DNA of 64,000 nt from IMG/VR virus record IMGVR_UViG_3300044646_001664; one strand, written 5' to 3'. How positions within the stretch are numbered: position 1 is the first letter of the stretch; each line of letters starts with the position of its first letter. Under the pieces are notes generated by a model, which was not told the origin of the DNA, ran no database searches, and was given only the letters and a program-made list of their open reading frames with translations. Source of the DNA: an uncultured virus (IMG/VR IMGVR_UViG_3300044646_001664). Its lineage: Duplodnaviria; Heunggongvirae; Uroviricota; Caudoviricetes. This document shows, in pieces, positions 24,128 through 51,796 of this stretch. Made by a program: the position numbers and the translations under genes.

Positions 24128-26379
24128 TATGCGCTTAAATCCCCTACAGCCACCCAAGTATTTGCTGCTCTTTTAACAATTGTGGCGACAGACCATTGTC
24201 CTCTTAGTTTTAAACCAGGACTTCCATTTACTGTTGTAGTTGCTGGAGTTACCGCTGCAATTGTTATTTGTCCTGCTCCAGTTTGTAAAATATTTATTTG
24301 TGATCCTATTGCAAAATTTGCAGTAGCATCTGTTGGTATATTTAGTGTACCCGCAGTTGCTCCATTACTTAACTCAAGCCATTTATCTTTATCTGCTAGA
24401 ACTACTGTGTATGCATTTGTTGTAAATGTAGGTGTTGAAATAGTTAAAGTAGAAGAAGCAAACTCAACTGCTTGTGACACCGAATTAAGAGTGCCCCCAA
24501 CAAGAATTTTGTCATTAGTAGAATCCCAAGCAATTCTGCCATCTGTTGTAGAAGATGTAGTAGATAGAGTAAGGAGTGGTGTATCAATTGTTGGACTTGT
24601 TAAAGTTTTATTTGTAAGGGTTTCAGATACATCTTTAAGAGCAGTTCCATTCATAGAGTATGACTTACCAGAAGCAAGATTTATGTGTTCCGATGAAGTC
24701 CAAGAATCTGTAGAGTCAACCCAGTTAAAGGTTTTATCGGTTGTGCCTTTAAGTGTAATACCTCCGCCATCGGCAGTTATGTCTGTTGGAGTTTCTACAT
24801 CTCCAAGAATAATATTTTTATCTTCAACAACTAGGTTAGTTGAGTTAATATTTGTAGTTGTACCGTTTACGGTAAAGTTTCCAGATACCGTCAAAGAAGG
24901 AACTGTAAATTCTCCAGATGAAGATACATTAGCAAGGATTGTTCCGCTTGAGTTTTGCCATTCTTGCAGGTTAGCGGTTTGTGATGCTATGCCTCTAATA
25001 ACTTGTCCAATATTTGTTGTAGCAGTTGTGGTAACTTCCATTTGTGCGCCGTAGTTAGTAGTACCACCAGTACGCATTTTTCCAGTTGATGTTACAAAAG
25101 ATACACCTGTAATAAAATCTGAAACAAATGCGCCATCTGATTGAATTCTTGCCAATAGTGTACCAGCACTATCCTGCCATTGTTGAAGGTTGGCGGTTTG
25201 GGAGGTTGCACCACGAACAACTATCGGAGTAATTGCTGCCGTACCAGCAACAAAACTTCCAACGGCAGACAAAGTAAATGTTCCACCTGTACCTGCTACA
25301 TCTGTAAATCCTGAACCAAGAACCGTAAAGGTTGTTGATGTAACTGCTGTGACTGTCCAAGTTCCATTGTAAGTGCCACCACTTACTGATGCCACTGTAA
25401 CTCGCTGACCTGCTTGCACAAGTGATGTGCCACCATAGGTAAAGACTGCAACTGTCGCAGATGTATATGCAGCCGATGTGATTGCCGTAGTAGTTGAACC
25501 ATTGATGCTTGTGGTAGTCCCTGCGTATATTTGTCCAGCAGAATTAATTCCTGAAAGAACAGTTCCAGCACTACCCCTCCATTGTTGTAGGTCTGAAGTT
25601 TGAGTTGAAATACCTATTACTTGTAAAGATGGATAACTTCCTGCTGTTGATGTGACAGCAAAATAGGCAGAATTATTTCCTGATTGAAATACTAGTTGGC
25701 TTCCTCCGCCACCTACATATCCCATTGAACCTGAAATACGTAAATTACCACTTGCCTGGATTGATGCCAACGTTGTACCAGCATTATTCTGCCATTGTTG
25801 AAGGTCGTTTGATTGTGACGTTGCGCCTCTCACAACTATTCCAGTAGTAGTATTATTTATAGGAATTACTGATAATTGTGTTCCTGTTATTAAGGTTCCA
25901 AGATTTAGTGCGCCAGTATTTCTTAGGCTTGCCCTTACCGTTCCATCAAAATTGTGCCATTCTTGCAGGTTAGCGGTTTGAGATTCGGTGCCCTTTACAA
26001 TTAAACCAATAGTTTCAGCATTAGCAGTAGTAATCTGTTGCACTCCACCAGTAAAAGTATTGGCGGTAGCAAGATAAGGAACACCAGTAATTGCTGAACC
26101 TGCTGGAATTGTTACTGTGCCAGTAAAAGTGGGGGAAGCAAGTGGGGCTTTAGCATCTATCTGAGTTTGAATTGCTGAAGTTACACCATCTACATAATTT
26201 AATTCTGTAGAAGTTGCTGTAAGATCAACGTTCTCGTTAATTTTTGGGGTAGTTAAAGTTTTATTTGTAAGAGTTTGTGTATCCGATGTGGTAATAACTT
26301 GATTACCATTGACCGTAGCAGAGTTTCCTTCTACGATCAAACCATTCTTGACCCTAAAATCTTTATTTGTTGTAGTCAC
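24127..26379 (-). CDS. Tail fibre/appendage protein
   Basis: N-terminal [17 protein letters not shown] repeats, five Q(T/S)..LQ.W repeats, C-terminal ...WVAVGDLSA domain. Confidence 0.75.
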   Translation of the reverse strand: MTTTNKDFRVKNGLIVEGNSATVNGNQVITTSDTQTLTNKTLTTPKINENVDLTATSTELNYVDGVTSAIQTQIDAKAPLASPTFTGTVTIPAGSAITGVPYLATANTFTGGVQQITTANAETIGLIVKGTESQTANLQEWHNFDGTVRASLRNTGALNLGTLITGTQLSVIPINNTTTGIVVRGATSQSNDLQQWQNNAGTTLASIQASGNLRISGSMGYVGGGGSQLVFQSGNNSAYFAVTSTAGSYPSLQVIGISTQTSDLQQWRGSAGTVLSGINSAGQIYAGTTTSINGSTTTAITSAAYTSATVAVFTYGGTSLVQAGQRVTVASVSGGTYNGTWTVTAVTSTTFTVLGSGFTDVAGTGGTFTLSAVGSFVAGTAAITPIVVRGATSQTANLQQWQDSAGTLLARIQSDGAFVSDFITGVSFVTSTGKMRTGGTTNYGAQMEVTTTATTNIGQVIRGIASQTANLQEWQNSSGTILANVSSSGEFTVPSLTVSGNFTVNGTTTNINSTNLVVEDKNIILGDVETPTDITADGGGITLKGTTDKTFNWVDSTDSWTSSEHINLASGKSYSMNGTALKDVSETLTNKTLTSPTIDTPLLTLSTTSSTTDGRIAWDSTNDKILVGGTLNSVSQAVEFASSTLTISTPTFTTNAYTVVLADKDKWLELSNGATAGTLNIPTDATANFAIGSQINILQTGAGQITIAAVTPATTTVNGSPGLKLRGQWSVATIVKRAANTWVAVGDLSA

Positions 26380-39884: not shown

Positions 39885-39926
39885 TTTAGTTTATCCTTTC
39901 GTTAGATAACTTTCTTTATACCTGCA

Positions 39927-39948
39927 ATTCTAGCAGGGGGGTCTGACA
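39927..39948 (-). promoter_or_regulatory. RecA-NDp/PafBC-type promoter
   Basis: TGTCAG-ACCCCCCTGC-TAGAAT. Confidence 0.7.
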
Positions 39949-39976
39949 ATTTAGGGGGGTTATTTGCTAGGCTCAC

Positions 39977-39992
39977 TGTGATTTGTCTCACA
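39977..39992. promoter_or_regulatory. CRP/GlxR-type site, perfect consensus
   Basis: TGTGA-TTTGTC-TCACA. Confidence 0.75.
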
Positions 39993-40048
39993 TTTACTTG
40001 CTAGGCTCACGCCCCTAAATAATTCTATATTTAATTTTCTATAATGGA

Positions 40049-40077
40049 ATTATAGCAGGGATAAGCCCAAAAGTCAA
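40049..40077 (-). promoter_or_regulatory. Housekeeping-sigma promoter, leftward
   Basis: TTGACT-N17-TATAAT with extended TG. Confidence 0.75.
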
Positions 40078-40181
40078 CACGACACGCCGTTAATAACACG
40101 CATGTAATTAGTGATATGCACCACACGACATATCGGACATATCGGACATGCAGCCCGGCTCGGTCGGGTGTGTCTGAGAGG

Positions 40182-40247
40182 GTTATCCACATGACGTAGA
40201 TCACATACCTATTTCACGCTCAAGTTATCCACATGACCTACATCACA
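40182..40247 (+). promoter_or_regulatory. Two DnaA boxes, each fused to a CRP-like site (24-bp direct repeat, 42-bp period)
   Basis: GTTATCCACATGACGTAGATCACA and GTTATCCACATGACCTACATCACA. Confidence 0.7.
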
Positions 40248-40287
40248 AGACACAATGTCCGTTTTGTACTACTTACTGGTGAGTAAA

Positions 40288-40309
40288 TGTCAGTGGTCGC
40301 TGTTATACT
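40288..40309 (+). promoter_or_regulatory. RecA-NDp/PafBC-type promoter
   Basis: TGTCAGTG-GTCGCTGT-TATACT. Confidence 0.75.
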
Positions 40310-40357
40310 TCTAGTATAAAGAAAGTTAAATAAAGGTTATTTAACAGAAAGGACAAA

Positions 40358-40465
40358 ATGAAAGATTTTGTTAAAAAGTTAGAATTAGAAAACTATCTTG
40401 ATGAAAGTCAAGATGAGTTAAGTCTAAGACTAGATGAGTTAATCGCTCTTGGTTCATATAACTAA
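40358..40465 (+). CDS. Acidic micro-protein (35 aa)
   Basis: GAAAGGA RBS, MKDFVKKLELENYLDESQDEL... Confidence 0.5.
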   Translation: MKDFVKKLELENYLDESQDELSLRLDELIALGSYN

Positions 40466-40569
40466 ATATAAAAAAAATCCTAGTGAGCCTTACTAAAAAA
40501 GTAAGCAAATAATCTAGGTCAAGGAAAAAGATAAACACAAGGTTTATCGCTTAAAGAAAGGAATTCAAA

Positions 40570-40743
40570 ATGAATTCACTAAAAAATAAAGTGTGTAAGC
40601 ATACACCTAATAAAAATGCTATCTCTATCCATCAGGATATGAAATATACTTTCTGTGAGAATTGCGAAAGCAATATCTACTCTCACTATATTGAGGACAA
40701 TGACTTAATGTCTTATTGGTCTTCATGGAAGGTAGGTAAATAA
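40570..40743 (+). CDS. Small putative Zn-binding protein (57 aa)
   Basis: GAAAGGA RBS; CxH...CxxC. Confidence 0.5.
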   Translation: MNSLKNKVCKHTPNKNAISIHQDMKYTFCENCESNIYSHYIEDNDLMSYWSSWKVGK

Positions 40744-40848
40744 ATGTTTTCTACAATAAAACTAAATTGTCGCATATGTGATGAACCTATTTATAGCGTT
40801 CATTTTGATACGCAAGACATAATCACTTGCTCAAATTGTTGGGAGTAA
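40744..40848 (+). CDS. Zn-ribbon micro-protein (34 aa)
   Basis: CRIC...CSNC. Confidence 0.45.
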   Translation: MFSTIKLNCRICDEPIYSVHFDTQDIITCSNCWE

Positions 40849-40849
40849 A

Positions 40850-40972
40850 ATGCTTAACGAAATAAAAAATAAAATAATTCGTATTCAAGAATTGCGCCGT
40901 AGTAATGCGGCAACACCAATTCCAAATAAAAAAAAATATAGTAGAAAGGTAAAACATAAAAATGCAAAATGA
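40850..40972 (+). CDS. Basic micro-protein (40 aa) with KKKYSRKVKHK motif
   Basis: GGAG RBS; translated by hand. Confidence 0.5.
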   Translation: MLNEIKNKIIRIQELRRSNAATPIPNKKKYSRKVKHKNAK

Positions 40973-41127
40973 AAATATAACTAAGCAATTTGAAAACGCA
41001 GTTGAATTAACTAATTTAACCGAAGCGCAATTAGAAATTGTTAAACAAATTTTATTAGATAAATTTAACTAATAAAAAATTTTTGCAGAAATAAAAACTC
41101 TGCAAAAAACCCGGCTCCCCTGGCGTG

Positions 41128-41160
41128 TCGTCCACAGCCTGTGGATAAACCTGTGGATAA
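41128..41160 (-). promoter_or_regulatory. DnaA box cluster
   Basis: TGTGGATAA at 41140 and 41152, plus an inverted 7/9 box TCGTCCACA at 41128. Confidence 0.75.
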
Positions 41161-41171
41161 CTTACGTACGA

Positions 41172-41187
41172 TGTGATTTTTCTCACA
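41172..41187. promoter_or_regulatory. CRP/GlxR-type site, perfect consensus
   Basis: TGTGA-TTTTTC-TCACA. Confidence 0.75.
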
Positions 41188-41235
41188 CAGTTTGAGCGTC
41201 TTATTATTTGAGATTACTGGCTAGTAGGTTGTAAA

Positions 41236-41257
41236 TGTCTGCTAATTCTGCTAAACT
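41236..41257 (+). promoter_or_regulatory. RecA-NDp/PafBC-like promoter (variant)
   Basis: TGTCTG-N10-TAAACT; also TTGTAA at the -35 position. Confidence 0.55.
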
Positions 41258-41299
41258 TACAGAGTAAGAAAATAACAAAAAAGAAAGTAGGTAGCAAAA

Positions 41300-41497
41300 A
41301 TGGCTAACCTTTACACAATAGAAAACCTTTTACAAGGTAAACAATATCGCTCTAATTCTCTTAATGGAGAAATTATTAGCGGTGAAAAAACCGACCATTG
41401 GTTTGGTAATGATAGAGAAGCGTATCGTGTTTTAATTCGCACACCGCATTCTTATACAGACCACTATCGCATAATTGCGGTTAAGGTAGGTGAATAA
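41300..41497 (+). CDS. Small early protein
   Basis: 65-aa ORF after promoter and RBS. Confidence 0.55.
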   Translation: MANLYTIENLLQGKQYRSNSLNGEIISGEKTDHWFGNDREAYRVLIRTPHSYTDHYRIIAVKVGE

Positions 41498-41706
41498 ATG
41501 ATAAAACTTTGTGGTATTTGTGGTATCAATTCCGCTCATGTATCTAAGCATGGCATTCCCCCAATGTGTGATGAATGTATTGCTAAGAATTGGAGGAGGG
41601 TCAATGTCTGATTATCTTAACTCTCTAGATGAGGTCTATACCGACCTAGTAGCCGAGTATGGCGAGGAGATAACCCTTGCTTATCATCAGGCTAATATAA
41701 AGGAGA

Positions 41707-41722
41707 TGTGAGGCAACTCACA
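41707..41722. promoter_or_regulatory. CRP/GlxR-type site, perfect consensus
   Basis: TGTGA-GGCAAC-TCACA. Confidence 0.75.
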
Positions 41723-41750
41723 CTCCAACACACCCCCTATAATTGGAAAA

Positions 41751-41772
41751 TGTCAGCGATAACTGATAGAAT
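41751..41772 (+). promoter_or_regulatory. RecA-NDp/PafBC-type promoter
   Basis: TGTCAG-CGATAACTGA-TAGAAT. Confidence 0.7.
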
Positions 41773-41805
41773 AATAACTCAAACAAAAACGAAAGGTGGT
41801 CAGAA

Positions 41806-41991
41806 ATGACTTATACTGTAAAACTAGAAACCTTTAATGGTGCTGTAAAAAATATCAACCTACCTTCTCAGGGTGCGGTTGCTCAATTCATAAACACTTA
41901 CCCAAACCAATTACCTGTTGGCGTATCTGTAAAAATTGCTTGTGATGTGTTAGGTGTTCGTGGCACACTTAGGGGAAAGGCGTTAGCATAA
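41806..41991 (+). CDS. Small early protein, paralog of 39407..39592
   Basis: GAAAGGTGG RBS; shared motif. Confidence 0.6.
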   Translation: MTYTVKLETFNGAVKNINLPSQGAVAQFINTYPNQLPVGVSVKIACDVLGVRGTLRGKALA

Positions 41992-42140
41992 TGATAAGTA
42001 GCGTAATGACTTTTAAATGCGACCAATGCAATAATGCAGGTTATATCTTTTGGGGAGATAACCTTGACTATGATGTAGAAAAATGCCAATGCGAAAATTT
42101 TGCCCTTGGAACTTTATTTACTAGCGGGGAGGCTGACTAA
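41991..42140 (+). CDS. Zn-finger micro-protein (49 aa), paralog of 42907..43071
   Basis: CDQC...G.I.WG...DYDVE.C.C. Confidence 0.5.
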   Translation: MISSVMTFKCDQCNNAGYIFWGDNLDYDVEKCQCENFALGTLFTSGEAD

Positions 42141-42349
42141 TGAAAACAATTAAACACTACATAACACTAGAAACTGAAATTCTTAACGAAAACGATATAA
42201 CTGCTAAGGCTCTTTTATCTTTACCTAAAGAAACACAACAAATTAGACTAACTGAATTAGCCTATATTGCTTTATCTGAAACAATAGAAAAAGAGTTAAT
42301 AAAGTTAAATAAAAACAATTCTTTTGCTGTCTTAAAGTTGGTTAAATAA
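42140..42349 (+). CDS. Hypothetical early protein
   Basis: GGAGG RBS, TAATG coupling. Confidence 0.55.
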   Translation: MKTIKHYITLETEILNENDITAKALLSLPKETQQIRLTELAYIALSETIEKELIKLNKNNSFAVLKLVK

Positions 42350-42561
42350 TGATGACTAGAAAATCTTATATCCAAACCGCAAACATCTTAAAAGGATTTG
42401 TAGATGAAATTCCACAAAATACTTATGAGGATTTAGTTCAAGAATTTGCTGAGTGGTTTAAATCAGATAATGAAAACTTTGACTACGCAAGATTTGAAAA
42501 GGCTTGCGGAATTGATGAAATTGGTTTAATTCCTGTTGGTTCTGAAATGTGGAAGGGGTAA
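42349..42561 (+). CDS. Hypothetical early protein
   Basis: MTRK.Y...A.IL...F..DN.NFD..RF..AC pattern, seen in phage early regions. Confidence 0.55.
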   Translation: MMTRKSYIQTANILKGFVDEIPQNTYEDLVQEFAEWFKSDNENFDYARFEKACGIDEIGLIPVGSEMWKG

Positions 42562-42718
42562 AACAATGATAACTAATTTAGATTTAATTGCAATAATTAT
42601 TGCGCTAAGTGGTTCAATGTTGGTAATGTTTTTATTTTATAAACAAAATGTTGCACAACAAAAAGAAATTCGCAGATTGCGAAATGAATTGCGTAAAGCA
42701 TTTAAAGTATAAATAAAA

Positions 42719-42746
42719 ATTCCTGAGCAAGAATAAAAACTGCTCA
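42719..42746 (+). ncRNA. 3' H-type pseudoknot motif, copy 1
   Basis: ATTC-C-TGAGCA-A-GAAT-AAAAAC-TGCTCA. Confidence 0.65.
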
Positions 42747-42759
42747 AACATTTGTTCGA
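42744..42759. promoter_or_regulatory. Actinobacterial LexA (SOS) box
   Basis: TCAAAC-ATTT-GTTCGA; one mismatch to TCGAAC-N4-GTTCGA. Confidence 0.5.
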
Positions 42760-42859
42760 AAAACCCGGCGCAGGCGGCGTGTCGCAATCTATACATGACC
42801 TTTACGTGTGGTTAAGATCACACCCTAAATTCCCCAGATTAAGGCGTCTAATTGGATTT

Positions 42860-42881
42860 TGTCAGTTGTATCTGCTAGGAT
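42860..42881 (+). promoter_or_regulatory. RecA-NDp/PafBC-type promoter
   Basis: TGTCAG-TTGTATCTGC-TAGGAT; 9/10 CRP site upstream at 42807-42822. Confidence 0.7.
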
Positions 42882-42906
42882 AAAGATATAAAGAAAGAAG
42901 GAACAA

Positions 42907-43071
42907 ATGGGTAAAGTAAAAGAAGCACTAATGGATATATTAGAGCATGACCTATGCTATGGCTATGGTTGGTTATATCAAGGAAATAATGTAGACTTTG
43001 ATAGTGAGGTTTGCGAGTGTAATCCTTACGCTATATCTGCTGATGAAATAATGGAATGGAAAGGACTATAA
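42907..43071 (+). CDS. Zn-finger micro-protein (54 aa)
   Basis: AAGGA RBS; HDLC.G.GWLY.G...DFD.E.CEC. Confidence 0.5.
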   Translation: MGKVKEALMDILEHDLCYGYGWLYQGNNVDFDSEVCECNPYAISADEIMEWKGL

Positions 43072-43286
43072 TGGATAAAGAATATACTTATTCACTTACT
43101 ACTTCATATGATGGAGAGTTAATAAATACCCTGCGAGTTAGCGATATGCTAGAAGCAGTTAGGGCTTGGGATAAATGCGTGGACTATGGCTTTGCTAAAG
43201 AATACGCAACCTATAACTTGTCTGACCCAACAGGTAAGATGTATACTAAAACCTTCTACACTAACGGAGAGGTCGTAATTAAATAA
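43071..43286 (+). CDS. Hypothetical early protein
   Basis: MDKEYTY start by TAATG overlap, GAAAGGA RBS. Confidence 0.55.
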   Translation: MDKEYTYSLTTSYDGELINTLRVSDMLEAVRAWDKCVDYGFAKEYATYNLSDPTGKMYTKTFYTNGEVVIK

Positions 43287-43582
43287 TGGGAAGCATAACA
43301 GCAATAGGTTTAGCAGATACAACGCTAGACCTAGAAACACAATTAAAGTATCACCTGCAAGGTAATCATTATCCACCAATACCAACAGTAATGGTTCAGC
43401 CATGTATTGAGGCTATTGACGCATACTATGAGGAGGATTATTCTCGTAGAATAGAATTACCAGTTGTAGATGGATTTCAAATTAGTTGGAAAGGCAACAC
43501 TTGGACTACCGCCAGCGCATTGGTATCACACGCACACCTAGAGTGGTTCATTGAGCCAGCAGATGAGGACTTATATGAGTAA
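43286..43582 (+). CDS. Hypothetical early protein
   Basis: HL..NHYPP.P...C.EAI motif, seen in phage proteins. Confidence 0.6.
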   Translation: MGSITAIGLADTTLDLETQLKYHLQGNHYPPIPTVMVQPCIEAIDAYYEEDYSRRIELPVVDGFQISWKGNTWTTASALVSHAHLEWFIEPADEDLYE

Positions 43583-43667
43583 AGACTTGCAAGATAAGTT
43601 AGACGCAGTTGCTAAAATTTTAGAACCTATCCTATGGGAAACATTAGCAGAAATTGAGGCTGAATAA

Positions 43668-43901
43668 ATGGCTGCTACAATGATGAACATGGAATTAAAG
43701 AAAATAGATATTCTCAAACCTTCTATGATGATGGTTGGAGATTTTATTAGATACAATGATGAGGTAGTTGAAATACTTTCTCTTGAATCTGATCCTGACC
43801 AATACTTTTGGTATGCAGAATATCAAAATGAGTTTGGTGAAAAAGATACCGCTCAGTTAGTTGATAATGAATACTATGATTGGTATATTCACTTAGAATA
43901 A
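43668..43901 (+). CDS. Hypothetical early protein (SH3/KOW-like)
   Basis: VGDFI....V.I pattern. Confidence 0.45.
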   Translation: MAATMMNMELKKIDILKPSMMMVGDFIRYNDEVVEILSLESDPDQYFWYAEYQNEFGEKDTAQLVDNEYYDWYIHLE

Positions 43902-44004
43902 TTTTTCTGCACTTCCCCGCAGAAAAACCCGGCCCTGCCCGATTTGTCCGTTTTGTACCTTACGTACACTTGATATTTTCTCCACATTCTGCTAAAATAT
44001 TTAT

Positions 44005-44733
44005 ATGACAACATCACAATTAAAAAGATCATTTGACAGAAAGGTTGCTAATCTTGTCACAAAAAATGGAAAGCAAGCCGCAATTGCAAACACGTTCGGT
44101 CTTCCCGCTGGAAAGAATTATTCATGCCCTGGTGCCACTAGTGTTTGTGAAAGTGTTTGCTACGCAGGAAAACTTGAAAAACTCTACAAAGCCGTAAAGG
44201 CAAACCTAATACATAATTGGGAATTATTAAAAGACGCTGACGAATCGACTATGATTGATCTATTGCAGAATATGATTAATGATTTTAAAAAAGATTGTGA
44301 AAAGAAAAATGCGTCATTGTTATTTCGTATTCATTGGGACGGTGATTTCTTTAATGACACGTACACCAAAGCATGGAAACAAATCATCCTTAACAATACA
44401 GATATAAAATTCTGGGTATATACAAGGGTACAGCCTGCAGCGGTAATGCTAAAGGATATTCCTAATCTATCCTTATACTATTCAACAGACAGCGAGAATA
44501 AGCAGATAGGCGTTAGTTTAAAGAAAGATCATGGGGTACGCCTTGCATACCTTGCACAGAATTTTGCAATAGGTCAGGCAGATATGAAGGAGTTATTTAA
44601 TCGACCTGGTGCTAAGTGCCCTGAAAACCTAAAAGCCATTCCACTTATCTCAAGCGCTGGCTCGGCTTGCGTATCTTGCGGTTTGTGTGTATACTCTAAG
44701 AGCGACATAGTCTTTTCATCATCTAAGAAATAA
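44005..44733 (+). CDS. Gp88-like Fe-S/radical-SAM-related phage protein
   Basis: SCPGAT..C...CYA, FRIHWDGDF, FWVYTR, C-terminal CP...CxxCxxC. Confidence 0.65.
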   Translation: MTTSQLKRSFDRKVANLVTKNGKQAAIANTFGLPAGKNYSCPGATSVCESVCYAGKLEKLYKAVKANLIHNWELLKDADESTMIDLLQNMINDFKKDCEKKNASLLFRIHWDGDFFNDTYTKAWKQIILNNTDIKFWVYTRVQPAAVMLKDIPNLSLYYSTDSENKQIGVSLKKDHGVRLAYLAQNFAIGQADMKELFNRPGAKCPENLKAIPLISSAGSACVSCGLCVYSKSDIVFSSSKK

Positions 44734-44806
44734 GGGGCATATGGAGATACTAATAGTATTATCACTTATATTCTTATATATCCTATTCTCAGGCATGGGG
44801 CATTAG

Positions 44807-44822
44807 TGTGATGTATCTCACA
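44807..44822. promoter_or_regulatory. CRP/GlxR-type site, perfect consensus
   Basis: TGTGA-TGTATC-TCACA, abutting TCTCA-N5-TGAGA. Confidence 0.75.
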
Positions 44823-44917
44823 TCTCAATATATGAGATTATCCATGAGATAATTTGTATTTTTGACCAAAAAATGTTAGACTTATACAGTAAGCAAAAAC
44901 CAACAAGAAGGAGAACC

Positions 44918-45088
44918 ATGTCCGTATCAAACGCAACATACAAGGTAGGCGACACCTACACATCACAAAAATCAAAGGTAGTAGGAACTATTACCGAAAT
45001 TGTGCCAACTAACAAAAACACAGTTAGAGTTAAGTTAGATGTTAATGGCTCAACTCGCTGGACAACTTGGACAGCAAAGAACGCTTAA
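44918..45088 (+). CDS. Small SH3/KOW-like protein, paralog of 45678..45848
   Basis: AAGGAG RBS; TY..GD..T..K..V.G.I....P......RV.L...GS.R. Confidence 0.6.
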   Translation: MSVSNATYKVGDTYTSQKSKVVGTITEIVPTNKNTVRVKLDVNGSTRWTTWTAKNA

Positions 45089-45107
45089 TCTTAGCCTAGT
45101 GGCTAAA

Positions 45108-45134
45108 GTCCTGAGCATGACGAGAAACTGCTCA
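45108..45134 (+). ncRNA. 3' H-type pseudoknot motif, copy 2
   Basis: GTC-C-TGAGCA-T-GAC-GAGAAAC-TGCTCA. Confidence 0.6.
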
Positions 45135-45173
45135 ACTCAAAAGCCCCACTAACAGAAATGGAAACCCATCACA

Positions 45174-45596
45174 ATGGCAAGAAGCAAACCCATCAGCGTA
45201 AAAATCGCTACTGCTAAGGTTATTACAGCCTTAGAAAATAGATTAGCAGAGTTAGAGGCTAACTATAAAACACAAGACGAGAACGAAGCAAAGTTCCAAG
45301 TCGCAATAGAGGCTTGGAAAAAAGAACTATTTGCTTTTGCTATCGCTAATGTTTCTAAGGCAGAAAACCTACGCACTAACTATCGTCAATGGTCAAGCAA
45401 CCTTAATGTTGATTTTGATTTAACAGTTAAGGAAGGCGAGTTCCCTGCTGAGCCTCAAAGAGAGTTTGAGCAACTCCATGCTCATACCTATCGTGAGCAG
45501 AAAGAGGAAATGGAAAACGCTATCCGTATCCTCAAAATGACCGACGAGGAAACAGTTAATACTAGCACATATAACGCTATCGCAAGATACTTGTAA
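45174..45596 (+). CDS. Hypothetical coiled-coil early protein
   Basis: 140-aa ORF with highly-expressed-type codon usage. Confidence 0.65.
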   Translation: MARSKPISVKIATAKVITALENRLAELEANYKTQDENEAKFQVAIEAWKKELFAFAIANVSKAENLRTNYRQWSSNLNVDFDLTVKEGEFPAEPQREFEQLHAHTYREQKEEMENAIRILKMTDEETVNTSTYNAIARYL

Positions 45597-45677
45597 TAGT
45601 TTGGGGGTATTTGACTATGCCCCCAAAATATGTTAGACTAAATAAGTAAGCAACCACCACAACAGAAAAGGAAAATC

Positions 45678-45848
45678 ATGACACTAGGCGGATACACATA
45701 CCAACTAGGTGATTTATTCACCACTAGTAAAACAGGCGTAACTGGTAGAATTGTAAAGTTCTCACCACTTAACTCTAAACTTACTAGAGTATCACTACAA
45801 TTAGCAAACGGCTCTCGTCGTCTTGCTATGGTAAGCACAACTAAATAA
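45678..45848 (+). CDS. Small SH3/KOW-like protein (56 aa, not in ORF track)
   Basis: TTGACT-N17-TAGACT promoter, AAGGA RBS, MTLGGYTYQLGDLFTTSK... Confidence 0.6.
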   Translation: MTLGGYTYQLGDLFTTSKTGVTGRIVKFSPLNSKLTRVSLQLANGSRRLAMVSTTK

Positions 45849-45954
45849 ATAATCTTGGGGTAGGTTTGTAACGTGTAATCACTTAAGTCCCTGCCCCAAC
45901 CATATTTATCTCTGATAAGCACTTGGCTTAATTGCTAAGTTATTCCTGAGATAA

Positions 45955-45984
45955 GACTCCTGAGCATGAGTTCTAAACTGCTCA
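45955..45984 (+). ncRNA. 3' H-type pseudoknot motif, copy 3
   Basis: GACTC-C-TGAGCA-T-GAGTT-CTAAAC-TGCTCA. Confidence 0.65.
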
Positions 45985-46119
45985 TCTTTTAATTGCCCCC
46001 GCAAAAATCCGGGGCAGCGTGATTTAAATCACATCTCATTATGTGAGACTAATTAAGAACTGAACTTGCATTTCCACAATCTTGATGATATTATTGTATT
46101 AACAGAAAAGGAACCCCTA

Positions 46120-46587
46120 ATGAGCGAAGTAATGACACAGGAGCAGTTATCTGTTCCATACAATCCTAACCTACTTGTTACGTACAAGTATGTTCCAGAA
46201 ACATATGCAGCACCTGAAAGCCCTACATTCATGACTGATAAGGTTACTCAGATTGAATGGGACCTACATAACGGTCGTACTACTCAAAAACAATTAGCAG
46301 AGAGACGCTTAGATATAAGTTGGTTAGAGGAACAAATTGTAGAATGGTATGACCCTAACTATACTAAAGAAGAAGTGTTGCAAGCAATCATAGAACACTT
46401 TGGGTTTAATCCAACTAAGCAAATTGAAGTTCAAGGTACCGTATCGTTCAGCGGAACGATTAATATTCCACTGTCAGAGATTGAAGACTTTGACCTTAGC
46501 AATGTAACAATTGATGTTGATCTAAGTTCATATGAGTATGACGCAGATCTTAATGTGGACGAAGTATCTTTGGAGGACCACTACTAA
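46120..46587 (+). CDS. Acidic hypothetical early protein
   Basis: AAGGA RBS before MSEV; D/E-rich C-terminus. Confidence 0.6.
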   Translation: MSEVMTQEQLSVPYNPNLLVTYKYVPETYAAPESPTFMTDKVTQIEWDLHNGRTTQKQLAERRLDISWLEEQIVEWYDPNYTKEEVLQAIIEHFGFNPTKQIEVQGTVSFSGTINIPLSEIEDFDLSNVTIDVDLSSYEYDADLNVDEVSLEDHY

Positions 46588-46606
46588 ATTTGATAGGGGG
46601 CTATCA

Positions 46607-46636
46607 ACGTCGTGGGCCAAGACGTAAAACTGGCCC
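46607..46636 (+). ncRNA. 3' H-type pseudoknot motif, copy 4 (compensated variant)
   Basis: ACGTC-GT-GGGCCA-A-GACGT-AAAAC-TGGCCC. Confidence 0.65.
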
Positions 46637-46712
46637 TAACAAAAACCCGGCCCCGCCCTAAATGTCCGATTTGTACCAATTAAGAAGATTAAACCATTTT
46701 CCCCAATCCTAG

Positions 46713-46741
46713 TTGACATTGTCAGCCATGACTGCTAAACT
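46713..46741 (+). promoter_or_regulatory. Dual promoter: canonical -35 plus RecA-NDp/PafBC element
   Basis: TTGACA-t-TGTCAG-CCATGACTGC-TAAACT. Confidence 0.75.
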
Positions 46742-46767
46742 TAGTTAAAACAACCGAAAGGATAAAA

Positions 46768-47784
46768 ATGGCTCATGATTTAGAAACTCAAAATGGCGTA
46801 GCAAGTTTTGCATCATTTAGAGAGCCTGCATGGCACAATCTTGGTACTGTATTTGATACTGAGAAAAATACAAGTGAAATGCTTGTTGCTGCTAATCTTA
46901 ATAATTGGAATGTTAGACTAGAGGATTTAGAAATCCCATCTAGTTTAGTATCTGACAAACAATATCAATATGTTGTTCGTACAAATCCTACTGATAAATC
47001 TCAAACTGATGTTTTGGGAATTGTTGGGCAGCGTTATGTTCCACTACAAAATGAGGATTTATTTGCCTTTGGCGATAACATTCTTGATGGTGGTGGGCGT
47101 TGGGAAACCGCTGGCTCAATTAGTGGTGGGCGTGTAGTATTTGGCTCATTAGCATTAGAGCGTGAAACTGTATTAGACCCTAATGGCGTTGCTGATGTTG
47201 TAAAGACTTATTTACTCATCAACACTTCACATGATGGTTCAATCGCTATTCAAGCAAGCATAACACCTGTTCGTGTTGTGTGTGCTAATACTCTTAATGT
47301 TGCACTAAACCGCACTAAGAAAAAAGATGGCGTAAAGCAATCTTTCAAAATCCGTCATACCCAAACTGCTGAGGGCAAAATTGCTATTGCTCGTCAGGCA
47401 CTAGGCATGGCTAACGCTTACATGACTGAGTTCGATAAGATGGCTCATGCTATGATAGCAAAAGAAATCTCAGCACAAGATTTCAATAACATTATTCTTG
47501 CTGCTTATCCTAAGCCTGAATTAGATACTAAGGGCGCAGTAAAGAAATGGGAAAACAAGGTAGATATGATTAACGATATCTATACTGGTGAATTTAACGG
47601 AATGATTGCTGGTAATGCGTGGGGTGCGTTCAATGCGCTAACTGAGCGTTTAGACTGGTATCGTTCATCTCGTAGTGCAAATGGCGAAAGCATGTTTGCT
47701 GCTGCTTCTGGATTTGACCCTGCTACCAATGCAGAAAAAAATCGTTTGCTAAGTATTGTTCAAAATACTTTACAAATAGTTTAA
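46768..47784 (+). CDS. DUF932 (phage/plasmid-like TIGR03299) family protein
   Basis: PAWH.LG, LG.VG..Y..LQN, ETAG...GG..VF, SHDGS, TPVRVVCANTL, AWGAFNA.TE. Confidence 0.85.
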   Translation: MAHDLETQNGVASFASFREPAWHNLGTVFDTEKNTSEMLVAANLNNWNVRLEDLEIPSSLVSDKQYQYVVRTNPTDKSQTDVLGIVGQRYVPLQNEDLFAFGDNILDGGGRWETAGSISGGRVVFGSLALERETVLDPNGVADVVKTYLLINTSHDGSIAIQASITPVRVVCANTLNVALNRTKKKDGVKQSFKIRHTQTAEGKIAIARQALGMANAYMTEFDKMAHAMIAKEISAQDFNNIILAAYPKPELDTKGAVKKWENKVDMINDIYTGEFNGMIAGNAWGAFNALTERLDWYRSSRSANGESMFAAASGFDPATNAEKNRLLSIVQNTLQIV

Positions 47785-47789
47785 CAATA

Positions 47790-47818
47790 AAATCCTGAGC
47801 AAGATTTAAAACTGCTCA
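47790..47818 (+). ncRNA. 3' H-type pseudoknot motif, copy 5
   Basis: AAATC-C-TGAGCA-A-GATTT-AAAAC-TGCTCA. Confidence 0.65.
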
Positions 47819-47823
47819 TCATT

Positions 47824-47897
47824 GGTTCTGTAGCATAGTTGGTTAATGCGCTACCCTGTCACGGTAGAGATCGTGGGTTCAAGTCCCATCAGAGCCG
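47824..47897 (+). tRNA. tRNA-Asp(GTC), CCA not encoded
   Basis: Acceptor GGTTCTG/CAGAGCC, anticodon arm CTACC-CTGTCAC-GGTAG, T arm GTGGG-TTCAAGT-CCCAT, discriminator G. Confidence 0.92.
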
Positions 47898-48539
47898 CCC
47901 CGGGTTTTCTTTCTTTAAATAATAACACATGATTGCTTCATTAAGAAAGATTGACTTTTTCCCCAGTTTCCTGTAAAATATTAACATGACCACAATTAAC
48001 AAACCACTAACCATAGACGGCCTAATAATGAATATATATGAGGACAACTCTGAACATTTTGACTTTATATATAGCATGAATAATGGAGACTGCGATTGTT
48101 GTCTTCACTTTGCAATGAATTTGATTAAGGAGTATGATAGATAATGTTAGGTTATACATATAAAGATATACAGGCCTTTGGTAATAGTTTAACTTGGGCT
48201 ATTGATACCGCCAAAAACCAGGGGGATGAACAAAACTATAAACAATTACTAATAGTATGGGACTTCTTTGAGGGACTACTAGCAGAAGGTTACATAGATG
48301 AGAACACATACTATGGATAATGGCGAGATCTTAGATAAGATTATAGAACTTATAAACACAGACGGAGAGATCATGTCTGATGAAGAGGTTGTTAATAATA
48401 TTAGGGGACTTCTTGAGACTAACCCTCAAACCTATTGGGGAGCAAGCCAAAGCAGTGTGATGTAGATCACCTTACGATATCTTGTAATTTTTCCCAGTTC
48501 GTAGTAAAATTGTATTAAGAACCTAAAGAAAGAGACCCA

Positions 48540-50861: not shown

Positions 50862-51419
50862 TAACTATTTAGATGAACAGTTACTTAAAGCCCAACAGTT
50901 GCTATGGTCTGGCTCTCTACATGAAGTGGACCAGGCACACAACATCATTGCTAACTTAATTAAAGATCGCCTACCAGCATAGGAAAAACCCGGTATCAAT
51001 TACCAAACCTTCAAACCTTATTTACGAAAAAGACATTAAGAACCCAATTCAAAAAATCCCAGAAAGTTTGACAAACCTTCAAACCTTTATATTTAAAGAT
51101 AGTATAATATATATATGAGTCCTCGTAACTACTATAGTAAGAATCGTATTGATAGATATAATATGAGTCCTTCTTTTGTATCTACCGCTTCAGGTATGGC
51201 AGAGAAAAAGGTAGAGAGGTTTGTTACTAGGGTATTACGATCCATCTTTAAGTCCCGCCGTCGCAATAAATCATAGTACTAATAGACATTACGAAGCGGG
51301 AAAAAAAATCCCAGAAATATACAGATTATTCCCATAATTACCAAACCTTTCTAGATTTTTTCTGGGGTTTTTCCTACATTTTCCTACATTTTCTGGGCAT
51401 TTTTATAGGGGTTTTTTAC

Positions 51420-51448
51420 TTGACAAACCATGGTATTGGGGGTATAAT
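51420..51448 (+). promoter_or_regulatory. Perfect consensus promoter with no protein gene directly downstream
   Basis: TTGACA-N17-TATAAT. Confidence 0.8.
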
Positions 51449-51454
51449 GCATGC

Positions 51455-51652
51455 CGCATATGGGGATAGGAAGGTTTGGGATAGGGAGGTTTGGCCGCCA
51501 GAGGATTACGACGCCATCTATAAAATCGCCCAATCCCCCACTATGCTCCACTTTCCTCCATTCTAACCCAATCTAAAAAATGTCAGTAAGGATTATCTTT
51601 CATACCAAACCTCCAAACCACCTATTTAAAAGCCTTCCAAGCCCTATTTGCG
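51455..51652 (+). ncRNA. Candidate ~200-nt structured non-coding RNA
   Basis: Starts at the predicted +1; 5' and 3' arms pair in four colinear helices. Confidence 0.55.
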
Positions 51653-51796
51653 ACGGTATTTAACCATCTCGCTGGTTCCCAAACCAGACATATCTGGCTA
51701 TCTGAGATATGGGGATAGGGGGATATAAGGTTTGTTATTACACTGGGGATTATGATACTCCTTCTGTACCCGCCAAAAATAGGATACAATAAGTTT

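Follow-up and report, generated by a model that had tools for sequence, protein, structure and literature searches.

The window, meaning the whole stretch of 64,000 nt analyzed here, has a GC content of 35%, originates from lake samples and comes from a tailed phage with a genome of roughly 105-116 kb. Its island of interest is the small-gene arm of a lytic actinophage from lakes, and presumably early; early timing of the genes is assumed, and the RNA-library contigs that span the island, in which DNA carry-over is possible, lack the power to show starts. Many island proteins are 34-98 aa long and without a family match, several of them with paired CxxC motifs, and at least four small Cys-rich proteins of unassigned function are candidate binders of the boxes listed below. 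With the exception of one DnaA box, the motif copies in the window are confined to 39.9-51.0 kb; the end at 48510 set by the earlier note is too early, since the island extends to about 51.1 kb. The complete relative G002 (109,757 bp) concentrates its motif copies in a single 11-kb island, the exceptions being a DnaA box and a loose TGTCRG-N10-TANNNT match. The features of the island are given by position in the window and strand.

39927-39948 (-): leftward -26-type promoter TGTCAG-N7-cTGcTAGAAT; orthologues conserved in relatives
39977-39992 (no strand): perfect CRP/GlxR-type palindrome centred at about -64.5, 52.5 nt away from where the leftward -10 begins
40049-40088 (-): leftward composite of GGCGTGTCG (40080-40088), 2 nt and TTGACT-N17-TGcTATAAT; gap always 2 nt in relatives
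40183-40233 (+): two DnaA boxes TTATCCACA (40183, 40225), each within a 24-nt direct repeat
40256-40269 (+): TGTCCGTTTTGTAC box (ATGTCCGWWTTG family), conserved in relatives
40288-40309 (+): rightward -26-type promoter TGTCAGTGGTCGCTGTTATACT, the form nearest host recA promoters
41079-41104 (+): pseudoknot copy 1, ATTT/AAAT and TGCAG/CTGCA
41106-41130 (+): A-tract and GC-rich block (AAAACCCGG...) ending in GGCGTGTCG (41122-41130)
41128-41160 (no strand): DnaA-box cluster, TCGTCCACA (+) and two perfect TTATCCACA on the minus strand (41140, 41152), 12 nt apart
41172-41187 (no strand): perfect CRP/GlxR-type palindrome centred at about -84.5, 72.5 nt away from the -10
41236-41257 (+): -26-type promoter, TGTCTG variant, -10 TAAACT
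41707-41772 (+): -26-type promoter (41751-41772) preceded by a perfect palindrome (41707-41722) that overlaps a gene end and is centred 52.5 nt from the -10
42719-42746 (+): pseudoknot copy 2, ATTC/GAAT and TGAGCA/TGCTCA
42744-42759 (no strand): LexA-like box TCAAACATTTGTTCGA, one mismatch from TCGAAC-N4-GTTCGA; some orthologous boxes in relatives perfect
42760-42784 (+): A-tract and GC block with GGCGTGTCG (42776-42784), whose reverse complement extends to CGACACGCCG
42808-42881 (+): imperfect palindrome GTGGTTAAGATCAC (42808-42821) and -26-type promoter (42860-42881)
43924-43998 (+): AAAACCCGG, TGTCCGTTTTGTAC box (43945-43958) and promoter TTGATA-N17-TAAAAT; ATG 6 nt downstream of the -10, as for a leaderless gene
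44807-44882 (+): perfect palindrome (44807-44822), second palindrome and ATGTTAGACT-type promoter (44873-44882)
45108-45134 (+): pseudoknot copy 3
45611-45639 (+): promoter TTGACT-N17-TAGACT (ATGTTAGACT type)
45956-46050 (+): pseudoknot copy 4 (45956-45984), imperfect palindrome GTGATTTAAATCAC (46019-46032) and ATGTGAGACT
46592-46741 (+): full cassette before DUF932, with GATAGGGGGCTATC hairpin, pseudoknot copy 5 (46608-46636), AAAACCCGG block, TGTCCGATTTGTAC (46663-46676), and TTGACA with TGTCAG-N7-cTGcTAAACT (46713-46741)
47791-47979 (+): pseudoknot copy 6 (47791-47818), tRNA-Asp (47823-47900) and promoter TTGACT-N17-TAAAAT; ATG 6 nt after the -10
48457-48510 (+): imperfect palindrome GTGATGTAGATCAC and promoter TTGTAA-N17-TAAAAT
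50985-50993 (+): last AAAACCCGG copy, past the end set earlier

The spacer parts recur far above chance. Compared with 200 dinucleotide shuffles of the window, AAACCCGG occurs 6 times (0.64 in shuffles), GGCGTGTCG 3 times (0.03), TGTCRG-N7-TGNTANNNT 5 times (0.06) and TGTCCGWTTTGTAC 3 times (0); exact matches to TGTGA-N6-TCACA (4 vs 0.10) and to the DnaA box TTATCCACA (5 vs 0.97, four of the five within about 1 kb) sustain the CRP/GlxR and DnaA assignments of the earlier note, and a generic sigma-70 scan of the window gave no enrichment (54 vs 51.0 +/- 6.9). The suggested comparison with shuffled controls and related phages found the motifs both enriched and recurrent: among 62 non-redundant related loci from lake phages, 57 hold the palindrome, 54 the DnaA box, 41 GGCGTGTCG and 57 a -26-type promoter; of 237 promoter sites, 217 share the strand of the genes. 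AAACCCGG was found in only 16 of 80 related loci, and AAAACCCGG is a mere local variant of the GC-rich block. That nearly every spacer holds the parts was an overstatement, as only two of the 14 spacers read (41073-41299 and 42713-42906) combine most of them; six have the pseudoknot, five AAAACCCGG on the plus strand, three GGCGTGTCG, four a perfect and three an imperfect palindrome, and two DnaA boxes. The roughly constant order of parts is borne out by their centres relative to the estimated TSS: GGCGTGTCG at about -40, the ATGTCCG box at -45 to -80, the palindrome at -65/-75/-85, DnaA boxes at -85 to -130, the LexA-like box at -120 to -140 and the pseudoknot farthest upstream.

The host is an actinobacterium, as had been supposed, since WhiB scores above the Pfam cut-off in all five complete relatives; in agreement with this, two promoters have the leaderless-gene arrangement, their ATG following the -10 by 6 nt. 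M. smegmatis, the species named for reporter assays, does not fit a window of 35% GC from lake samples. An actinobacterial MAG whose bin includes a phage contig led to a candidate host order, represented by 31 streamlined actinobacterial genomes (1.2-2.2 Mb). A tandem WYL pair is encoded in 30 of the 31 genomes, and a CRP-family protein in five of five. The absence of a cognate regulator gene held up in searches of early-region proteins with Pfam (42 proteins) and PHROGs (45 proteins), neither of which returned a regulator match. WYL and Sigma70_r2 were each found in none of the five complete relatives, no CRP or DnaA family was detected among 45 further G002 proteins, and no WhiB gene was found inside the window, although the relatives do carry WhiB.

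In the -26-type promoters, TGTCAG lies at -28 to -23, a fixed 10 nt ahead of an extended -10. The consensus from 302 unique promoter contexts is TTnGAAAw-TGTCAG-N7-cTGnTAnaaT, and 50 unique versions of one spacer keep TGTCAG and the -10 with the intervening 7 nt variable. According to the available text of PMC8635444, the PafB HTH touches -23 to -28, with a conserved GTC, beside a canonical -10, and the -26 element of PafBC promoters is located at -28 to -23; the proposed PafBC match therefore extends to position. Like the PafBC/RecA-NDp promoters of Actinobacteria (PMC8635444, PMC11804915 and PMC6789036, as far as accessible), the phage promoters have TGTC(A/G)G with its conserved GTC at the same place, 10 nt from a TANNNT -10, in the form of candidate-host recA promoters. 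Unlike these, they are phage-borne and putative in their dependence on PafBC, with 5-14 copies per early arm; the GTG after TGTCRG, typical of host sites, is weakly kept, and many, indeed most, copies add a -35-like hexamer (TTGACA, TTGnAA) to the extended -10. According to the available part of PMC8635444, PafBC promoters have no -35; phage promoters that do have one may fire without PafBC. In candidate hosts, TGTC[AG]GTG-N8-TANNNT lies upstream of recA in four of five genomes, the fifth recA locus being without it, and exceeds control matches genome-wide in two genomes (8 vs 0 and 5 vs 0), with recA, radA, carD and DUF6504 genes downstream; in a third (G039) it is not above control (1 vs 3). 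PafBC is activated by ssDNA, with local sources deemed more plausible in the accessible text of PMC11804915.

A second promoter flavour carries GGCGTGTCG, the reverse complement of the mycobacterial WhiA/WhiB2 motif CGACACGCC, which the available text of PMC13473873 gives as 8-10 bp, GACACGCC / CGACACGCCGn. This match makes a stronger case for WhiA sites than the GACAC core on which they had been proposed, which alone is not enriched in the window (50 vs 72 in shuffles). Of 131 unique contexts, which like all spacing counts across relatives are not phylogenetically independent, 27 place GGCGTGTCG exactly 2 nt upstream of TTGAC[AT]-N16-18-TANNNT and 11 further ones just upstream of a -26 promoter. 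As at S. venezuelae sepX (PMC10243135) and in the M. tuberculosis regulon (PMC13473873), both as described in the parts available, the exact CGACACGCC(G) stands just upstream of the -35 and a WhiB-family protein is at hand, here encoded by the phage group itself. At sepX, WhiB contacts about 7 bp between motif and -35 (PMC10243135, available text), whereas the phage motif, on the template strand, is separated from the -35 by only 2 nt; a further difference is that CGACACGCC is not enriched in the candidate host genomes (14 vs 37 control matches).

Among the upstream boxes, the palindrome has the profile TGTGAt.TA.aTCACA, the CRP/GlxR form. It lies most often 52.5 (25 contexts), 62.5 (5) or 72.5/73.5 nt (18) from the -10, and 106 of 177 palindrome contexts are without a -26-type promoter inside 150 nt. 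In candidate hosts, TTATCCACA is clustered at the ends of the chromosome, in part as tandem pairs with a spacing of 10-11 nt, and the TGTCCGTTTTGTAC box has 10 vs 0 control matches in candidate host genomes. Support for a LexA site in the window is weak: exact TCGAAC-N4-GTTCGA is absent (0 in the window), and the single imperfect box, perfect in some relatives only, lies at -120 to -140, far upstream and not over the promoter.

The 3' hairpin of the earlier note is an H-type pseudoknot with covariation, without an entry in Rfam. The cassettes would also serve as joints for gene shuffling. In the available text of PMC4122927, the PeSLs of T4-type phages are composite terminator/promoter motifs of plastic early regions; the phage likewise has short terminator-plus-promoter units between small early genes, coinciding with gene-replacement breakpoints, and differs from PeSLs in its covarying pseudoknot, variable set of host-regulator-like boxes, Gram-positive host and promoter type. 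The alignment to a relative of 94% identity is interrupted at cassettes, as at 40322/40765 and 41323/41603 of the window, and RNA-library contigs link pseudoknot copies (42746 to 47822, 47752 to 42715). That the repeats are kept for modular shuffling alone, with host-site matches arising by chance, is nevertheless very improbable, because shuffling leaves the exact letters of TTATCCACA, CGACACGCC and TGTGA-N6-TCACA, TGTCAG at -26 and the phasing unexplained, and a cultured Streptomyces phage with a homologous small-gene arm lacks the motifs apart from a single CGACACGCC, which falls within an annotated gene. Shuffling and regulation are mutually compatible. The DnaA-box clusters near 40.2 and 41.1 kb might instead mark a replication origin where host DnaA loads a phage DnaB-type helicase, the other boxes being ordinary promoter furniture. 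Four perfect DnaA boxes within 1 kb, as two oppositely oriented pairs flanking a divergent promoter region, tandem spacing resembling candidate host chromosome ends, and a complete relative with DnaB-type helicase, Pol III alpha and RecA but no DnaA family match among scanned proteins would suit this. We consider it unlikely, given that in relatives the boxes shift between spacers at set promoter distances (-85 to -130), the GC skew does not reach its minimum at 40 kb, and there is another origin candidate at 51.0-51.75 kb, where a 475-nt non-coding stretch carries iteron-like ACCAAACC repeats.

The boxes could also serve small, unannotated early proteins of the phage itself as operators, in the manner of stoperators or Cro-type sites, their host likeness reflecting convergence or competitive mimicry that shuts out host regulators. 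The many short proteins without family match, the perfect palindrome (4 in 11 kb of phage vs a single occurrence across the 7.3 Mb of five candidate host genomes), the unenriched CGACACGCC in candidate hosts, and an ATGTCCG box and GC block without a named binder all fit. Yet four boxes equal the published host consensus letter for letter, the -26 element in position too; the same -26 promoter is found at recA of candidate hosts, and the DnaA box at their chromosome ends; and the first promoters cannot need proteins not yet made, unless these are virion-packaged. On balance, this explanation is possible though rather unlikely. It seems quite improbable that the boxes are mainly decoys, by which replicating phage DNA titrates DnaA, PafBC, LexA, CRP and WhiA, so that host replication initiation stalls and damage or defence responses are weakened. 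Consensus-perfect sites reach 9 TTATCCACA, 8 palindromes and 14 TGTCRG-N10-TANNNT in one related locus (<=17 kb), and about half of the palindrome contexts do not adjoin a -26 promoter. However, the boxes keep a fixed order and fixed, helically phased promoter distances and are confined to one 11-kb arm, features that cis-regulation predicts and that a sink does not need.

Compared letter by letter, four parts are exactly published host sites: PafBC -26, WhiA/WhiB2, DnaA and CRP/GlxR. Since the phage group encodes no such regulator except WhiB, host RNA polymerase with host regulators is most likely, and we favour, with modest confidence, a host-regulator cassette model as a whole. A reshuffled regulatory cassette would divide the arm into a dozen short transcription units, each with 3' RNA pseudoknot, A-tract and GC-rich block, optional operator boxes and a promoter of host sigma-A type with extended -10. 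Two promoter flavours would carry host-identical activator elements: TGTCAG at -28 to -23, a putative PafBC -26 element read by sigma adaptation, and CGACACGCC abutting the -35. Transcription would be by host RNA polymerase with two activators, namely host PafBC, responding to single-stranded DNA, and host WhiA, partnered by a WhiB from phage or host; DnaA, CRP and LexA would modulate through the predicted DnaA box, CRP/GlxR palindrome and, in one spacer, LexA-type box. We infer binder identity, sign of effect and timing.

Phages are known to borrow one host regulator, as with LexA at GIL01 and CTXphi or DnaA at lambda pR, and CRP affects phage lysogeny as a host global regulator acting on phage control. 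In these cases host global regulators bind phage control DNA, as proposed here, but mostly in temperate phages and with one regulator at one or two promoters, whereas four or five site types extend across a lytic arm here. Mycobacteriophages have the stoperators of cluster A and the start-associated sequences of cluster K, short conserved motifs likewise scattered through actinophage intergenic DNA; these are read by phage repressors or have no assigned binder and, unlike the parts described here, are not known to equal host consensus sites. If bound by host proteins, the boxes may allow the phage to read or drain the DNA-damage, replication and growth signals of its host.

The spacers of the small-gene island carry a repeated set of parts that resemble the binding sites of host regulators. 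The earlier note had made this claim and had set motif enrichment over background and conservation in related phages as its check. The claim holds in substance, and the two lines agree: most of the parts exceed their shuffled counts in the window, the WhiA-type box CGACACGCC among them (3 copies against 0.03 expected), and the parts recur in 62 non-redundant related loci.

Motif counts in the window against the mean of 200 dinucleotide shuffles of the window
AAACCCGG: 6 in the window, 0.64 in shuffles
GGCGTGTCG: 3 in the window, 0.03 in shuffles
TGTGA-N6-TCACA: 4 in the window, 0.10 in shuffles
TGTCRG-N7-TGNTANNNT: 5 in the window, 0.06 in shuffles
TGTCCGWTTTGTAC: 3 in the window, 0 in shuffles
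TTATCCACA: 5 in the window (4 within ~1 kb), 0.97 in shuffles
TCGAAC-N4-GTTCGA: 0 in the window, 0 in shuffles
GACAC: 50 in the window, 72 in shuffles

In IMG/VR, 494 contigs encode a relative, and the best 80 of these (82-100% identity) were taken with 8-kb flanks. Across the 62 related loci (858 kb), the DnaA box is present in 54 (213 sites), the CRP/GlxR-like palindrome in 57 (187 sites), the WhiA-type box CGACACGCC/GGCGTGTCG in 41 (148 sites) and the -26-type promoter in 57, with 217 of 237 promoter sites oriented along the gene strand; AAACCCGG is confined to 16 of the best 80 loci. For each motif, about half of its sites or more (49-60%) fall within the 19% of the DNA that the mask leaves non-coding, and these shares are underestimates because the crude mask (ORFs of at least 35 aa) over-calls coding DNA. 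The non-coding share of GACAC, at 23%, equals background. In the complete relative G002, one 11-kb arm holds nearly all sites; elsewhere there are one DnaA box and one loose match to TGTCRG-N10-TANNNT.

That nearly every spacer is built alike was too strong a statement, as most parts occur in only 2 of the 14 spacers read, but the fixed order is real. An alignment of the spacer that precedes the DUF932 gene, in 50 unique versions, gives the following anatomy.

Order of parts in the DUF932 spacer
Part 1: stop codon, then the GATAGGGGGCTATC hairpin
Part 2: pseudoknot
Part 3: A-tract and a variable GC-rich block of 12-14 nt
Part 4: optional palindromes, DnaA boxes or CGACACGCC, gained and lost among lineages
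Part 5: AATGTCCGWTTTG box
Part 6: promoter TTGACAT-TGTCAG-N7-cTGnTAnAcT, then Shine-Dalgarno and ATG

Relative to the estimated start site, GGCGTGTCG lies at about -40 in the relatives, ATGTCCG boxes at -45, -55 and -80, palindromes at -65, -75 and -85, DnaA boxes at -85 to -130 and the LexA-like core at -120 to -140, with the pseudoknot most distal upstream. AAAACCCGG, considered as a conserved box, proved to be just the local form of the A-tract and GC-rich block, and the block itself fitted neither a hairpin, nor a rut site, nor an opposite-strand terminator.

The upstream end of the cassette is formed by an H-type pseudoknot, of which the window holds six copies.

H-type pseudoknots at the 3' ends of small operons
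41079-41104, plus strand
42719-42746, plus strand
45108-45134, plus strand
45956-45984, plus strand
46608-46636, plus strand
47791-47818, plus strand

All six share one geometry (S1 3-4 bp, L1 1-2 nt, S2 5-6 bp, L2 0-1 nt, L3 6-7 nt), and L3 mostly ends in AAAC. Among 41 unique copies from relatives, selected by stem 2 and the end of the loop alone, the 100% pairing of stem 2 is circular; stem 1, which lay outside the selection, is 85.4% paired, and both sides change in 4/4 of its pairs, one of them reading AU 16, UA 12, CG 5 and GC 4. Taken over both stems, 94.1% of positions pair, a level reached by 0/500 shuffles; slid registers give 29-34%. No Rfam family matches the pseudoknot at E <= 1. 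A preQ1-I riboswitch was set aside on that result and on its loop lengths, which we take to be different from those of the phage element. The pseudoknot is a candidate terminator, 3'-end protector or protein site. Breaks in the alignment to G002 were seen at cassettes, and some RNA-library contigs from lakes run from one copy of the pseudoknot directly into a different one. A counterpart may be the PeSL cassettes of T4-type phages (PMC4122927); like these, the phage spacers place a 3' structure and a presumed early promoter between small genes. The tRNA-Asp at 47823-47900 sits inside a cassette, 4 nt past a pseudoknot, and its 3' flank is the reverse complement of AAAACCCGG.

Up to 39884 the minus strand carries genes for a portal protein, a prohead protease, a class II ribonucleotide reductase, 2OG-Fe(II) oxygenases, glycosyltransferases, sulfotransferases and tail proteins, and the run of small plus-strand genes, with a GP88-family protein, a DUF932 protein and the tRNA-Asp, begins at 40358. 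The minus-strand gene at 18962-24157 encodes 1731 aa with matches to Kelch and DUF6242, and many repeats of ~0.4-0.8 kb, 76-83% identical, lie inside it. Among cultured phages, near and distant DNA searches matched only the tRNA and one 120-nt stretch and gave no close relative; in large Streptomyces phages the proteins most like the DUF932 protein reach 53.5% identity. Window bases 1-60966 are identical to record G001, and G002 is a complete 109,757-bp genome with terminal repeats, ~94% identical, that encodes a DnaB-type helicase, Pol III alpha, RecA, a Cas4-like nuclease, Hsp20 and a CHAP lysin. WhiB scores above the Pfam cut-off in 5/5 complete relatives, with none seen in the window; WYL domains and sigma-70 region 2 are absent from all five. 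The host is therefore an actinobacterium, probably of a low-GC freshwater lineage. M. smegmatis, the species the earlier note had turned to for reporter work, is not borne out as host given the low GC (27-46%, ~35% overall) and the lake samples from which the window comes. A cyanophage or enterobacterial host, prompted by low GC, 2OG oxygenases and tRNA-Asp matches, was discarded in view of WhiB in the five relatives.

The ribonucleotide reductase did not lead to the host, its 79-88% matches being contigs of phage DNA that ended up in the MAGs of many phyla. Loci L145-L157, in this identity range, are filed in Chitinophagaceae, Bifidobacterium, Luteolibacter, Flavobacterium, Paceibacteria and other MAGs and are evidently phage DNA mis-binned into bacterial genomes; the nearest bacterial-looking matches reach 56%, in Georgenia and Ruaniaceae MAGs. 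A candidate host order of streamlined genomes was reached with G007 as handle, by way of an actinobacterial MAG that contains a phage-like contig, and 31 genomes of 1.2-2.2 Mb were sampled.

One correspondence concerns the -26-type promoters, of which the window holds five with TGTCAG and one with TGTCTG. Their consensus over 302 unique contexts in relatives is TTnGAAAw-TGTCAG-tSS-N3-cTGnTAnaaT, and orthologous spacers retain TGTCAG and the -10 but vary freely in the 7 nt between them. According to PMC8635444, the helix-turn-helix of PafB touches -23 to -28 and reads a conserved GTC, and PafBC works with a canonical -10 in promoters that lack a -35. In TGTCAG-N10-TANNNT the hexamer falls exactly at -28..-23, the contact position given there, so that the phage promoters share with PafBC-dependent (RecA-NDp) promoters both the placement of GTC and the fixed distance to TANNNT. 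Unlike those promoters, which have no -35 consensus, the phage copies carry TTnGAAAw before TGTCAG, and promoter 46713 has a perfect TTGACA 17 nt from its -10. Because many copies bear a -35-like hexamer and an extended -10, PafBC is possibly dispensable, and promoters with such a hexamer may be independent of it.

The candidate host genomes supply a further comparison. Tandem WYL genes of ~300-350 aa each occur in 30/31 of these genomes, which serve as stand-ins for the true host, and the fragmentary MAG G007 gave one weak WYL match. In 4/5 candidate genomes recA is preceded by TGTC[AG]GTG-N8-TANNNT, adjoining or just upstream of a LexA box; one host recA promoter reads TGTCAGTGGCGCCTGCTACCTT, against TGTCAGTGGTCGCTGTTATACT in the phage. 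Genome-wide the pattern exceeds control matches in two genomes (8 vs 0 and 5 vs 0), and in a third the count is 1 vs 3. Genes downstream include recA, a radA-like gene, carD and a DUF6504 gene, and 5/14 host promoters of this type have the start codon 6-7 nt after the -10. From the control-beating counts and these genes we conclude that the pattern is the signal of a small specialised regulon in plausible hosts, not a generic promoter. The PafBC-type boxes proposed in the earlier note are thus well supported in form, by position, GTC and -10 and by the same pattern at candidate host recA; their function we infer.

A second promoter class carries the WhiA-type box. The phage box GGCGTGTCG is the exact reverse complement of GACACGCC, the 8-bp motif that ChIP-seq and IDAP-seq gave for WhiA and WhiB2 of M. 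tuberculosis in PMC13473873, next to CGACACGCCGn from an older data set quoted there; 2/3 window copies extend to CGACACGCCG. The phage sites thus match the extended GACAC motif of WhiA/WhiB co-activated promoters as given in that source. Among 131 unique contexts in relatives, the box lies exactly 2 nt upstream of TTGAC[AT]-N16-18-TANNNT in 27, and the leftward window promoter at 40049-40088 has this same spacing to its -35; another 11 of the 131 place it just upstream of a -26 promoter. PMC10243135 describes WhiA as binding upstream of the -35 while WhiB links it to sigma region 4, and the strand and spacing of the motif as differing among promoters. A box upstream of a sigma-A-type -35 is likewise the phage arrangement, and a possible WhiB partner is encoded by the phage group itself, in 5/5 complete relatives. 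Candidate host genomes show no enrichment of the box (14 vs 37 control matches). In five of these genomes every one of the 14 CGACACGCC sites falls on the reverse strand of its record, with 0 forward. The proposal of WhiA sites stands for the extended box, well supported in form, but not for GACAC alone, which is not enriched (50 vs 72).

About 40 nt after WhiA-type-box promoters, at 39964-40009 (minus strand), at ~40480-40512 (plus strand) and in many relatives, there is an element TGAGCC...GCAAATAA whose middle is either CTAG or an inserted hairpin with arms covarying among relatives; a short structured RNA or a leader is a possible reading.

DnaA boxes of the consensus TTATCCACA are paired in the window at 40183/40225 (42 nt apart) and 41140/41152 (12 nt apart), and thus resemble DnaA-box clusters in having at least two boxes close together. 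The same box clusters at the start and end of the single-contig chromosomes of candidate hosts, with tandem boxes 10-11 nt apart among them, positions which we take by convention to be the location of dnaA and the origin. The DnaA assignment is well supported in form. The palindrome, with 4 perfect and 3 near-perfect sites in the window and the profile TGTGAt.TA.aTCACA over 177 unique contexts, is set at one-helical-turn steps, its centre 52.5 nt (25 contexts), 62.5 nt (5) or 72.5/73.5 nt (18) from the -10; this places peaks at ~-64.5, -74.5 and -84.5, 10 nt apart, relative to an estimated start site and on non-independent counts. In 106/177 contexts no -26 promoter is nearby. A CRP-family protein is encoded in 5/5 candidate host genomes, which hold one perfect palindrome between them (perfect sites only scored), and the CRP/GlxR assignment is fair in form but finds little echo in these genomes. 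The palindrome is not an RNA hairpin: its letters are kept, not just its pairing, and imperfect copies are uncompensated.

The LexA assignment fares weakly overall. The only LexA-like site in the window is TCAAACATTTGTTCGA at 42744, with no exact TCGAAC-N4-GTTCGA, and the boxes do not overlap a promoter, their centres lying 120-140 nt upstream of the estimated start site. Orthologous spacers in relatives hold intact LexA-like cores and four perfect boxes, and one of the latter, TCGAACAGATGTTCGA, equals the recA box of two candidate host genomes (L175, L176) in 16/16 bases.

Other forms complete the island. Promoters of the form TTGAyW-N17-TAAAAT have the ATG (44005 and 47986) 6 nt after the -10, a layout shared with the 5/14 candidate host promoters mentioned above, and a ATGTTAGACT-type promoter is a further form.

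Leaderless-layout promoters in the window
43993-44007
47974-47988

Paralogous 56-aa genes at 44918-45088 and 45678-45848 (both plus strand) each follow a ATGTTAGACT-type promoter and show the deepest cover by lake RNA-library contigs in 3/4 runs. Such contigs from 4 runs of 4 studies cover 21-27 of 30 island bins, a measure blind to starts, strand and level and possibly reflecting DNA. A 9-nt tandem repeat, ACATATCGG x2 at 40128-40145, lies in the divergent region between its leftward and its rightward promoters; it was the only repeat noted that might belong to a BldC-type array. At 50998-51751 lies a separate repeat family: at least 10 copies of ACCAAACC(T)T, pointing either way, accompany repeats of AAAAAATCCCAGAAA/TTTCTGGGGTTTTT and a promoter-like TTGACA-17-TATAAT without mismatch (51420-51448), all within a 475-nt non-coding stretch. 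It is a candidate iteron-like origin, alternative to the DnaA-box clusters, or a further operator array. The ATGTCCG-family box ATGTCCGWWTTG gives 10 vs 0 control matches in candidate hosts G012, G014, G015 and G021 (L193-L202), directly before -35-like TTG hexamers in apparently syntenic intergenic positions; the neighbouring host genes revealed no binder.

The earlier note recognised no cognate regulator gene, and this stands: Pfam searches of 42 and PHROGs searches of 45 early-region proteins matched no regulator family, while the relatives do encode WhiB. The boxes may instead be read by phage-encoded proteins, a possibility that arises because several early-region proteins are small, Cys-rich and without assigned function. 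The kit belongs to the lake phage group and does not travel with the gene set, since the homologous small-gene arm (11.4 kb) of a cultured Streptomyces phage has as its sole motif one CGACACGCC inside an annotated gene. Sites for host regulators are the reading we prefer; judged by motif form, they are well supported for PafBC, WhiA and DnaA, fair for CRP and weak for LexA, and what they do we infer.

Put together, the parts suggest a scheme that we offer tentatively and consider rather improbable as a whole. A lytic actinophage would run its early programme through host master regulators. Its promoters would be PafBC sigma-adaptation sites, switched on by ssDNA from entry or replication; in PMC11804915, ssDNA activates PafBC and its source is argued to be local. 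Host WhiA together with phage WhiB would drive a second promoter class, DnaA, CRP and LexA boxes would feed in the replication, cAMP and SOS state, and all inputs would be packed in mobile cassettes ending in a new 3' pseudoknot RNA class. A full-text literature search, with subscription-only papers outside its cover, found no description of phage promoters of PafBC type or of a multi-regulator array.

Both PafBC sigma adaptation and WhiA/WhiB co-activation were discovered recently and are known from host genes only. If the scheme were true, it would give the first known case of a phage that exploits sigma adaptation, and a natural 'sensor panel' with multiple inputs. Separately, the covarying 3' pseudoknot is a candidate RNA family. 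The PafBC and WhiA/WhiB mechanisms could be dissected with dozens of natural promoter variants, and compact, combinable regulatory parts for actinobacterial engineering would follow. A phage family that copies PafBC, WhiA/WhiB, DnaA, CRP and LexA sites would show how the timing of infection is tied to host state in viruses of the most abundant freshwater bacteria.
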